Positions 33,833 through 41,913 of a DNA stretch of 64,000 nucleotides are shown piece by piece. This DNA is from an uncultured Nitrospiraceae bacterium (GTDB lineage: Bacteria > Nitrospirota > Nitrospiria > Nitrospirales > Nitrospiraceae): assembly GCA_963730935.1 (NCBI GenBank), contig CAVSTP010000003.1, positions 96,001-160,000 on the forward strand, read 5' to 3'. The notes beneath the pieces were generated by a model that saw nothing but the letters and a program-made list of their open reading frames with translations, was not told the origin of the DNA and did no database searches. The stretch's first letter is position 1; every line of letters begins with the position of its first letter. Made by a program: the position numbers and the translations under genes.

Positions 33833-33880
33833 ACTGATTCGTGCCGCAGGTCGCTGGTTCGATTCCAGTCGCCGGCTCCA
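33833..33880 (+). pseudogene. 3' remnant of tRNA-Thr(CGT); att-like scar
   Basis: ACTGATTCGT...AGGTC-GCTGG-TTCGATT-CCAGT-CGCCGGC-T-CCA: intact T-arm, 3' acceptor strand and CCA; D-arm and 5' acceptor strand absent. Confidence 0.75.
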
Positions 33881-35742: not shown

Positions 35743-36297
35743 TTATTTACCGCCCGGTAAGATACGGTTCGCCAACCAGAAGACGTATGTGCCGTACCAA
35801 ATCGTCGGGGACCAGGACACAACGGCAAACGTCCATGTCACATTCTCCAACCCGCGAGCAAGCCAAGCCAGGATCACGAAGAGCACCATCAGTACCGAGT
35901 GTGGAAGAATTGCCCACAGGAATCGGCGGTTGGGCGTGAAGTGATAGGCGACAATCAAGGCGCCGACCACCGCGAGCAAGGCATAGCAAGTAAACAACTT
36001 TCGATCCGACGCCTGCCAATAGGCTGCACCGAATACCACAGCAATGGCTGCATCCAACATCGTATCCCGCCAATTGCCCTGGGGGAGTTGGTCGGAGCCG
36101 AGATCGCTCTGCAAGTAGAAGAAGTCGATGCAATAGAGGAGCGTGACGGAGATTTCAACGGCCTGGAGCGGTCCCCATCCCTCTGTGACATGGAGTACAT
36201 CATAAAGCATCGATCCGAGCACAGCCGGATATAACTGCGTGTAGGTGAATCGATGCCAGGCTGAGAGCTCTTTGAGTCGCACTAGCGAGTGGAACAC
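35743..36297 (-). CDS. Multi-TM (about 6) hypothetical membrane protein, downstream of and co-oriented with the TIR gene
   Basis: Hydrophobic segments; QLYPAVLGSMLY; true start uncertain (see findings). Confidence 0.7.
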   Translation of the reverse strand: MFHSLVRLKELSAWHRFTYTQLYPAVLGSMLYDVLHVTEGWGPLQAVEISVTLLYCIDFFYLQSDLGSDQLPQGNWRDTMLDAAIAVVFGAAYWQASDRKLFTCYALLAVVGALIVAYHFTPNRRFLWAILPHSVLMVLFVILAWLARGLENVTWTFAVVSWSPTIWYGTYVFWLANRILPGGK

Positions 36298-36357
36298 AGC
36301 AGCGGGGCAACTGCTGGCTCCACCACAATGTTGGGGCGTGCATTCATGCGTCGAGAA

Positions 36358-37281
36358 CTACCTGTACCACTTTCCAGTTGCCTTGGAGTAAATGTTACCA
36401 CCGACATCACTTGAGAGGTGTCCACGGAGGACGCCAGGCTCGTCAGGGGGACAGTGAATGAATAGATCGATCTCCCGCGCGCCTCGCAAATCGGGCTCGA
36501 ATCCGTCCCGCTGGGGAGGGTCACCTTCCAATCTGATGCGCTGCCGACTTTGCAACCCGTTGCGGATTTTCATGCTTCCATCGCCCAACACTTTGACATC
36601 GATCACTCGGTCACTGATCTCAAACTCAGCGTAGCAACCACCAATCTGGACTTGGAAATTGCCGAAAAAGCAGCCGGTGCCACCATCTCCATCGGATGAG
36701 ATTTGCAGAATCGTCTTTCCACTAAGAGCGGCGTAATCTGGGTCTTTGAATTGGATGCGGCGCCACACTTGGTACACGATCTCAGTGTGCCATACCCCTG
36801 AGTATCCATGCAGCTGACAGGTCGGCGCAAATCCAACCTGGACAGTGGGGAGCTCAGTCGCCCATGATTTGAGCTTCACGCTCGCTTGATGATCGAGGGG
36901 CCTGGTTGGTTCAAACGTACCCATGGGAACATAGGTGAGTCCTGCGAAGTCTGAGGGTAGCTCAACACCGGAGTACAGGCAGAGTGCAACCCTCCTCCGA
37001 GTCAGCATCGCGGTGAGATACCCGTACTCAAACAACACGTTCGCTCGGGGCGTCCTGACACGCCTCTCGCGAATGACGGAATCATCGTCAGGTGTCGCAA
37101 GGAAAACTGCACCGGCGACTCGACTCGCAATGTTTTCGATGCCCATGAAGGTGATGTCGCCGAGCTTGAAGACCTCTGTCCACAGCAGGGGCTTTACGTC
37201 CTTGGCTTCCGAGAGGACAGCAACCACCTGCATGGCTTGATCGAGTCCTTCTTTGCTGCTTCCAACAAAGATCTCCTTCAA
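36358..37281 (-). CDS. TIR-domain protein (Cap12/Pycsar-type TIR) fused to a beta-rich C-terminal domain
   Basis: IFVGSSKEG, AVFLATPDD, PRANVLFEYG (catalytic Glu), LPSDFAGLTY; C-domain begins YSGVW; AAAAGGAG RBS. Confidence 0.85.
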   Translation of the reverse strand: MKEIFVGSSKEGLDQAMQVVAVLSEAKDVKPLLWTEVFKLGDITFMGIENIASRVAGAVFLATPDDDSVIRERRVRTPRANVLFEYGYLTAMLTRRRVALCLYSGVELPSDFAGLTYVPMGTFEPTRPLDHQASVKLKSWATELPTVQVGFAPTCQLHGYSGVWHTEIVYQVWRRIQFKDPDYAALSGKTILQISSDGDGGTGCFFGNFQVQIGGCYAEFEISDRVIDVKVLGDGSMKIRNGLQSRQRIRLEGDPPQRDGFEPDLRGAREIDLFIHCPPDEPGVLRGHLSSDVGGNIYSKATGKWYR

Positions 37282-37590
37282 CGTGCGCTCCTTTTAGAAA
37301 ATGGCGTCGTCCCCCTAGCCACGTCGTCTGTTGCGGCTCCCTAGCAGTCAGCCATCAACACTTTTAGTGGTCGCCATCGTGCCCTGTCGGCGTGAGTGTG
37401 TCAACGAGGGCTGGATTCTAGAGTGTTTGGCTTTTCATGGCGCGCGTCCTCCCATTCCATACAGATCCAGGGTGGCCTTAACAATAAGAACTTACTCACA
37501 CAGTGATCCCGCAACAAGGGAATGTGCTAGGGGTGCCCACAGTGCTGAGCCCTTAAAATAGAGAGATGCACCAACCTGGGGGAGGCTCTC

Positions 37591-41364: not shown

Positions 41365-41913
41365 TTACTTCTTCGTACAGCGAAGGTCTGCCTTCTGAAA
41401 CTCTGCGATCTGCTGATCGTCGATCGAGAGAGGAGCACAGCCGTGGCCCTTTTCACACACGAAGTCGAACTTCGCCGCCGGCTGATGACAGCTTTGACAC
41501 GACGCCCCCAGCAAGAGATTGACGACGTGCTCGTCGCCCCGATCTCTGATCTTGGTGCCGGCCTCCGAAATCTCCAAAGCAAAAAACTCCCATCCGTTCG
41601 ATTTTGGGAACTTCTCGCGCGGGTGCTTCACCATGGCTTCAAACGGAACAAGCTGGAGAATGGTGCCAACTGGATACTCCTTGTCCGGCTCACTCTCGCG
41701 GAAGATCCGCATCGCCTCCTTCAACTTCTGTGGATCTTCATGCTTGAAGCGTGTATTTCTGACCTTCGGCCAGTCGAGGATGCACCCGAAGCTTTGCTCA
41801 GAAACGGTGATATCTTGAGCGGCGACGCTGGATGGCATTGAAAAGCTAAGCCAGACTGCAAGGAGAATCCCTGCACACACCCAGAGAGAAATTTGACGTG
41901 TGAACGTCGTCAT
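41365..41913 (-). CDS. Exported monoheme c-type cytochrome, P460/c'-beta-like
   Basis: Signal peptide; YPVGTIL, AMVK, NGWEFF, C-terminal CQSCH, DFV. Confidence 0.68.
   Translation of the reverse strand: MTTFTRQISLWVCAGILLAVWLSFSMPSSVAAQDITVSEQSFGCILDWPKVRNTRFKHEDPQKLKEAMRIFRESEPDKEYPVGTILQLVPFEAMVKHPREKFPKSNGWEFFALEISEAGTKIRDRGDEHVVNLLLGASCQSCHQPAAKFDFVCEKGHGCAPLSIDDQQIAEFQKADLRCTKK

Follow-up and report, generated by a model that had tools for sequence, protein, structure and literature searches.

A conserved TIR–β-barrel fusion gene of integron-cassette origin and its membrane-protein neighbor in Nitrospirota

Two adjacent genes, one encoding a TIR–β-barrel protein and the other a membrane protein (hereafter the TM gene), lie on the minus strand of the window, the 64,000-nucleotide stretch of Nitrospiraceae DNA analyzed here (Table 1). 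Both open reading frames (ORFs) were recovered where the initial annotation had read them. Homologues of the TM gene begin at GTG 36282, and the GTG that precedes it at 36297 is replaced by GCG in other alleles; the start is therefore most likely at 36282, which widens the gap between the genes from the 60 nt first given to 75 nt. Contigs from four RNA libraries overlap the region (27, 11, 5, and 6 of 30 bins), and contigs cannot prove transcription. A promoter and terminator scan gave signals no better than chance, and an Rfam search returned zero matches.

Table 1. Features of the TIR–β-barrel locus in window coordinates. L014 is a homologous locus and G000 the host genome (99.89% complete).
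Feature	Position	Strand	Basis or remark
TIR–β-barrel gene	36358..37281	minus	307 aa; TTG start; RBS AAAGGAG 5′ of start
Cap12/PycTIR-class TIR domain, residues 1-145	36847..37281	minus	PF10137 and 7un8 fold match
Codon of E85, predicted catalytic Glu of the TIR	37027-37029	minus	
8-stranded β-barrel, residues 157-307, putative ligand sensor	36361..36813	minus	AlphaFold2 model, fold search
Cassette core-site position, decayed in the window	37313..37319	minus	6/12, alone no better than chance
Decayed left attC arm (inverse core, 5-nt spacer, L″ box), joined to TM start	36289..36336	minus	L014 attC alignment
TM gene, membrane protein with about 6 TM, 179 aa	35743..36282	minus	start GTG at 36282
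tRNA 3′-end-like 33-bp repeat	33848..33880	plus	exact copy at G000:C3:95618-95650

No cyclase, ThsA, or Argonaute gene was found in the window, as first noted; PADLOC models were run against its 49 other ORFs, and the six with hits are housekeeping types. The initial annotation had also placed a tRNA-derived attachment scar about 2 kb from the gene pair. The scar is real, with an exact 33-bp copy, but the pair lies ~1.9 kb outside the bracketed DNA. A link between the two was rejected: the copies bracket DNA to the left of the repeat, which is the right end of a separate ~34-kb region with a glycogen/trehalose gene cluster. Neither copy is part of an intact tRNA. The host genome has a third copy, which has diverged, at C3:16737-16815. 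Elsewhere in the window (41365-41913), a secreted-looking protein weakly matches cytochrome P460 (E 4e-5, which falls short of the cut-off).

A TIR domain fused to a β-barrel

Residues 4-120 of the 307-aa protein match PF10137 (Pfam search, E 5.5e-24), and the motifs IFVGSS, ATPDD, RANVLFE, and LPSD are present in the TIR half. The original assignment to the Cap12 class with an intact catalytic glutamate is borne out by this match and by E85, whose counterpart in TIR-STING (9lmq and 7un8) is the conserved FE-motif Glu when a profile of 74 homologues is aligned. E85 and the BB-loop residue W34 are invariant in 125 of 125 full-length sequences, as is the BB-loop residue F38 in 74 of 74 homologues. 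In the AlphaFold2 model (mean pLDDT 79.5, pTM 0.52), the TIR is joined by a low-confidence linker to a separate eight-strand domain. The top structural match of the TIR among 48,161 chains is the TIR-STING protein SfSTING (7un8; Z 14.7, rmsd 2.5, 129 aligned). On this sequence and model evidence, the domain has the Cap12 fold and catalytic residues, and NADase activity is predicted. For ElSTING, the available text of PMC12421889 identifies W34/F39 as BB-loop residues that bind substrate and describes an NADase activity that requires head-to-tail assembly of the TIRs.

PADLOC and NCBIfam models for Cap12 and PycTIR match within the TIR half only, and the NCBIfam Cap12 model NF050172 scores 66.8 bits against a cut-off of 450. 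CBASS Cap12 proteins (SfSTING 7un8, ElSTING 9lmq) share the N-terminal PF10137 TIR, a length of ~310 aa, the TIR-then-sensor order, and the catalytic and BB-loop residues. They differ in that their C terminus is STING rather than a barrel, with TIR-STING matches ending at or before residue 158, and in that the TIR-barrel gene has no CD-NTase nearby or found in its genome. Pycsar PycTIR, whose sensor is a cNMP sensor, belongs to the same TIR family (8jsj, E 6e-7), but its TIR is C-terminal (157-275 in 8jsj) and it needs PycC, whereas the TIR here is N-terminal.

The C-terminal region had been described as all-β from YSGVW onward, and the model agrees: YSGVW spans residues 160-164, and eight strands cover residues 162-306. 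Fold searching places the domain fused to the TIR among barrels of the Cap15/streptavidin 8-strand type. The modeled barrel has long hairpins, and the loop between strands 5 and 6 (about residues 252-269) is conserved yet low in confidence. Cap15 (7n34) aligns over 103 of 108 residues (Z 12.0, rmsd 2.5, 11% identity); it is outscored by de novo barrels (Z 12.4-13.3), equaled by quinohaemoprotein amine dehydrogenase (1jmx, Z 12.0), and followed by OmpA-type and avidin barrels. The matches also include the barrel of GID4 (Z 10.5), which binds peptides. An hhalign comparison of the barrel with Cap15 gave 0.1-0.2%, on thin Cap15 alignments (2 and 7 rows), and neither PF18153 nor any other Pfam model matched in the barrel. 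As for the conserved pocket tyrosines of the S-2TM-β barrels, the Y-x-Y seen in Cap15 homologues is, judged by eye, missing from strand 5. With Cap15 among the best natural fold matches, the likeness of the modeled barrel to that of Cap15 is one of fold, and homology is a possibility.

Conservation within the barrel is high, with a mean pairwise identity of 72%. R174, Q212, E219, R240, Q257, R266, R269, and Y298 are conserved at 99-100%, and C216 and H158 are invariant in 125 of 125 sequences. The ESM Atlas yielded no usable barrel match and Foldseek against BFVD weak matches only. Searches of plasmids, phages, and IMG/VR gave no barrel match, the 13 viral hits being other TIRs. Two viral contigs (L132:4986-5987 and L136:4989-5990) encode PF10137-like TIRs with another unannotated C-terminal domain; a repressor-like gene lies next to both, and L132 has a kinase-like gene there as well.

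Other barrel-bearing systems offer partial parallels. The S-2TM-β effectors (Cap15, Panoptes OptE, PanDA PanE, and Cas13-linked 2TM-β) share the 8-stranded topology seen with 7n34, but here a soluble predicted NADase replaces the two N-terminal TM helices, and the TIR-barrel stands apart in its 11% identity, its long extra hairpins, and its lack of a Pfam or profile match and of a cyclase or Cas13 partner. The PanDA β-PNP, as the available text of PMC13640721 presents it, is likewise a soluble barrel fused to a metabolite-destroying enzyme; that enzyme is a PNP rather than a TIR and adjoins a minimal DAC, whereas no DAC was found in the window's host. Stand-alone TIR NADases (SpbK and cyclase-free TIR-SAVED) would have in common with it the depletion of NAD+ by a single gene without a dedicated cyclase; in the portions of those reports available, their sensor domains are others and function is demonstrated, whereas for the TIR-barrel it is predicted.

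The fusion was not found in the literature searched, and a listing in a supplementary cluster table is possible. The word "barrel" is absent from the available text of four TIR or domain surveys (10.64898/2025.12.03.692087, 10.64898/2026.04.30.722052, PMC13069673, and PMC11350192), and the accessible part of PMC13692257 mentions 2TM-β genes beside TIR genes. The TIR-barrel is real and conserved, joins known parts in a new domain combination, and is best studied as a single gene.

Family spread and integron-cassette origin

A search with the barrel retrieved 172 proteins; among the best 120, PF10137 is present in 116, and the majority have a length of exactly 307 aa. Longer and shorter queries (158 and 61 hits) added close relatives and fragments. 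All matches listed, which for the 172-hit and 158-hit searches are the best 120, share at least 51% identity, and no distant barrel relative is among them; the word-based search may miss remote relatives. The family is tight, at 57-95% identity across phyla. Its genome loci, at 57-93% identity, come from metagenome-assembled genomes (MAGs) labeled Nitrospirota, Acidobacteriota, Planctomycetota, Verrucomicrobiota, Myxococcota, Rokubacteria, and Gammaproteobacteria, the labels being those of the MAGs and some short contigs possibly mis-binned. The closest named relatives are Nitrospiraceae, and within the host phylum 2 of 301 genomes carry the gene, the host counted.

The gene evolves under purifying selection: over 40 intact alleles, the TIR has a median dN/dS of 0.13 and the barrel one of 0.18. 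The GC3 of the alleles tracks host GC. By our expectation, the cross-phylum identity and host-adjusted GC3 look like those of a gene that evolves more slowly than a defense gene. Decayed or interrupted copies occur at three loci (L019, L125, and L129), and two more (L127 and L128) are frameshifted, possibly by assembly error.

Between most loci, DNA similarity stops within ~30 nt of the TIR-barrel ORF. In L014 and L047-L050, a core site lies at -40 and a 13-bp perfect core/inverse-core complement just past the stop codon. Under the usual attC box definitions, these loci carry a 125-nt attC with R″, L″, L′, and R′ boxes and extrahelical bases. The core site at -40 is intact in L014, L056, and L063. 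The window is similar to L014 over 36289-37308, and its intergenic gap corresponds to the left arm of an L014-type attC, with 9 of 12 inverse-core positions and the right half missing. Two loci with the TM gene alone (L018 and L020) retain the same left arm.

Of 40 clusters, 7 have exact core motifs and 3 have inverse cores, where chance predicts 3-4%; 1 has both. With decay allowed, at least 9/12 of the core leader is kept in 12 of 50 allele clusters, compared with 0.6% of random windows, and the inverse core in 13 of 55; these remnants are inherited rather than independent, most of them in related alleles. The full attC is kept by one allele group only (L014 and L047-L050), and the folding energy of the L014 site is ordinary (z 0.13). 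Our attC scanner found sites beside IntI in L160-L162 and, on 1.13 Mb of shuffled DNA, gave ~2 hits in each pass. IntI scores above the cut-off in 5 of 19 genomes; the window's host genome has none over it (best TIGR02249 score, 86 bits vs 265).

The TIR-barrel gene derives from an integron cassette and moves between bacteria as a single gene. Integrons are reported reservoirs of defense genes, according to the available text of 10.64898/2026.03.17.712381. Like cassettes with defense genes, the TIR-barrel in L014 is a single ORF flanked by a core site and an attC; unlike them, it lies outside arrays in most hosts, its attC is truncated in the window, and the host lacks an IntI over the cut-off. 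A Methylococcales locus (L029:2987-11281) contains an integron-like array with six attC-like ends, toxin-antitoxin cassettes, and a homologue of the TM family that sits between two of the six ends (0.10 expected). The same array encodes another PF10137 TIR with an unannotated C-terminal domain (L029:3025-3996).

Activating signal and proposed function

The initial annotation had called the locus cyclase-less. This held for the window and, for the families tested, for the host genome, where SMODS, DAC, mCpol, Cas10 palm, and Cap15 had no match and CD-NTases from six fetched loci gave no tblastn hit. No CD-NTase was found in the window, among 150 neighboring ORFs, or in the host genome, in which the PF21654 search had no ringing control. 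The one class III cyclase of that genome is a kinase-receiver fusion, not PycC; the genome also encodes seven GGDEF proteins. Among 18 TIR-barrel hosts, SMODS and mCpol were found in none, Cas10 over the cut-off in 1, and DAC in 9, and ThsB was found in 6 of 19. Most host MAGs are incomplete, so the absence of a synthase is weak evidence outside the window's host and G326, whose genome is one contig and whose TIR-barrel is intact. Among the searched families, no synthase tracks the TIR-barrel gene. As a universal ligand of the family, c-di-AMP was rejected, DAC not being found in any Nitrospirota host searched.

The neighbor scan covered 150 of 168 selected ORFs (6 TM copies, 6 other ORFs of L019, and 6 short ORFs were dropped). 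The defense-island enrichment that had been anticipated did not emerge: PADLOC models matched 4 of the 150, namely a receiver-cyclase fusion, which is the sole neighbor with PycC hits, a LuxR regulator, a methyltransferase, and one partial candidate model, none belonging to a system. Pfam assigns the neighbors to hydrolases, a peroxidase, a catalase, glyoxalases, reductases, transporters, and two toxin-antitoxin modules. Over 64 allele clusters, the recurrent ones are α/β hydrolase (9), TMEM175 (6), DUF5069 (5), and haem peroxidase (5), as raw counts uncorrected for background, several of which stem from one Verrucomicrobia-like clade.

Cap12-type TIRs are known as effectors downstream of dedicated cyclases. 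The TIR-barrel gene can do without both the TM gene and an adjacent cyclase. In many phyla purifying selection maintains its predicted catalytic machinery although no synthase tracks it, so the activator would have to come from the host or the phage. We tentatively favor, at a little under even confidence, a stand-alone sensor-NADase for anti-phage defense that is gated by a small molecule and has spread as an integron cassette. The barrel would bind a small phosphate-bearing ligand that any host can make under infection, for which a nucleotide or RNA breakdown product is a better candidate than a CD-NTase product. Binding may alter barrel oligomerization and align the TIRs head-to-tail into a composite active site, and the ensuing NAD+ depletion would lead to abortive infection or dormancy. 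This proposed sequence draws on TIR-STING activation, on ligand-gated barrel effectors, and on cyclase-free TIR-SAVED. In the available texts, barrel effectors oligomerize on ligand gain or loss, and their varied ligands include tRNA-derived 2′,3′-cUMP (PMC12657218, PMC12657230, PMC13640721, and PMC13692257); a TIR-SAVED effector can work without its cyclase, as the accessible part of 10.1101/2025.06.19.660554 describes. Patchy spread, purifying selection, and several decayed copies count for the stand-alone mobile sensor-NADase. The TIR class and the cassette origin favor a role in defense, whereas the neighborhoods, with redox and stress genes and no defense systems, disfavor it. A soluble 307-aa protein with a simple NADase readout makes the ligand directly findable, and finding it would test whether Cap15-like barrels sense more than cyclase products.

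In a further, rather doubtful reading, the protein is a cyclase-free, single-gene immune sentinel: its barrel, of Cap15 type but strongly diverged, recognizes a small molecule that signals infection, one so far undescribed, and activates a Cap12-type NADase. If so, the signal would be universal enough for seven phyla, a nucleic-acid breakdown product for example, and the barrel-sensor family would gain a TIR-coupled member spread by environmental integrons.

The neighborhoods with redox and stress genes are what lend some credit to a role outside defense, as a stress-responsive NAD+ sink or dormancy switch of soil bacteria in which the barrel senses a redox, electrophile, or metabolite cue. 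The four recurrent neighbor families, the catalase, glyoxalase, NmrA, and aldo-keto reductase genes also found beside the TIR-barrel, the absent defense clustering, and the invariant C216 and H158 would all suit such a role. No neighbor is constant, however, the clade behind several of the counts is a single one, the sites may be accessory-gene hotspots, and the characterized PF10137 relatives found (TIR-STING and PycTIR) are immune effectors, so that we regard this role as unlikely.

Direct sensing of the phage, with the barrel binding a phage protein or peptide and clustering the TIRs, would make a signal synthase unnecessary and has a parallel in SpbK, which is activated by a phage portal protein (PMC12847820, available text). 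The long extra hairpins and the GID4 match would fit a protein-binding barrel. A direct protein sensor should nevertheless diversify, and the strong conservation of this barrel (identity and dN/dS given above) leaves this mode of stand-alone defense quite improbable.

We likewise see very little likelihood that the protein is an orphan effector driven in trans by CBASS, Panoptes, PanDA, type III CRISPR, Thoeris, or housekeeping c-di-GMP or cAMP. Possible sources exist in the host, which has the GGDEF proteins, the class III cyclase, and a ThsB-caspase pair on another contig, and Cap12 relatives sense c-di-GMP (PMC12421889, in the text available). Against these stand the families not found in that genome (SMODS, DAC, mCpol, Cas10, and CD-NTase), the kinase-receiver architecture of the cyclase, and the ThsB pair having its own effector and not being found in G326. 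The pair itself (G000:C4:795816-797155; L168:4817-6156) consists of a 120-aa ThsB-type TIR followed by a 329-aa caspase-domain gene, a type IV Thoeris layout, beside HIT- and HNH-like genes.

The neighboring membrane-protein gene

The TM protein had been described as having about six TM segments, in keeping with a model of 6-7 helices (pLDDT 93.9) and six hydrophobic peaks, two of them weak. It is not the orphan it had been taken for: a profile search of representatives recovered 72 relatives at the 50% cluster level, with the motif YPAxLGSMLYD and invariant G and D. No Pfam model covers the family, and in the ESM Atlas the protein falls in unnamed clusters only. Its best fold match is the K+ channel TMEM175 (5vre; Z 12.2, rmsd 4.1, 160/188; next Z 9.2), below the caution level of ~13 for helical bundles. 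None of 41 family members matches PF06736 (TMEM175), and TM1 carries YPAxLGSMLYD rather than RxxxFSD, the TM1 motif of TMEM175 that is seen in bona fide TMEM175 genes among the neighbors.

The initial annotation had treated the TIR and TM genes as a two-gene module, and the distribution of the pair speaks against this. From 102 TIR loci grouped into 66 clusters at 95% nucleotide identity, 48 clusters have at least 600 nt downstream; the TM gene lies beside the TIR in 7 of these 48 alleles, the window counted. Below 88% identity, 1 of 40 alleles has the partner, and that locus holds a TIR remnant. In the tree, all five paired intact alleles fall in one clade of nine rows (100/96); its named rows are Nitrospirota, and four unpaired alleles belong to it as well. 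The expected co-occurrence of homologues with the TM gene is thus found, but in one lineage only. The TM gene is encoded in 3 of 18 host genomes, in one on a separate contig, and 14 of 16 TM loci have no barrel match in the fetched flank. Either gene decays alone: L154 has an intact TIR and a decayed TM gene, and L019, L018, and L020 have an intact TM gene and a decayed or missing TIR. Obligate co-occurrence was ruled out by the unpaired alleles, the TM-only loci, and the genomes without a TM gene.

The integron-cassette origin offers an explanation for the pairing. The TM gene may have joined behind the cassette once, in Nitrospirota, through loss of the right half of the attC, and afterwards either traveled with the cassette or been lost; it seems to be a local passenger. 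An integron cassette may in this way exit its array and leave a misleading "two-gene operon." Joint action, in which the TIR might make a signal and the TMEM175-like protein depolarize the membrane, is the least probable reading: the pair does recur as a ~1.56-kb unit in several Nitrospirota contexts, the paired TM gene is under purifying selection (dN/dS 0.13, 10 pairs), and the fold match has a counterpart in true TMEM175 genes near the TIR in six other clusters, but the pairing is rare among alleles and genomes, each gene is found intact without the other, the junction is a broken attC, and a TM homologue occupies an attC array of its own in L029. Those bona fide TMEM175 genes occur in L006, L007, L013, L059, L089, and L091, in the last of which the gene lies 55 nt downstream of the TIR gene.
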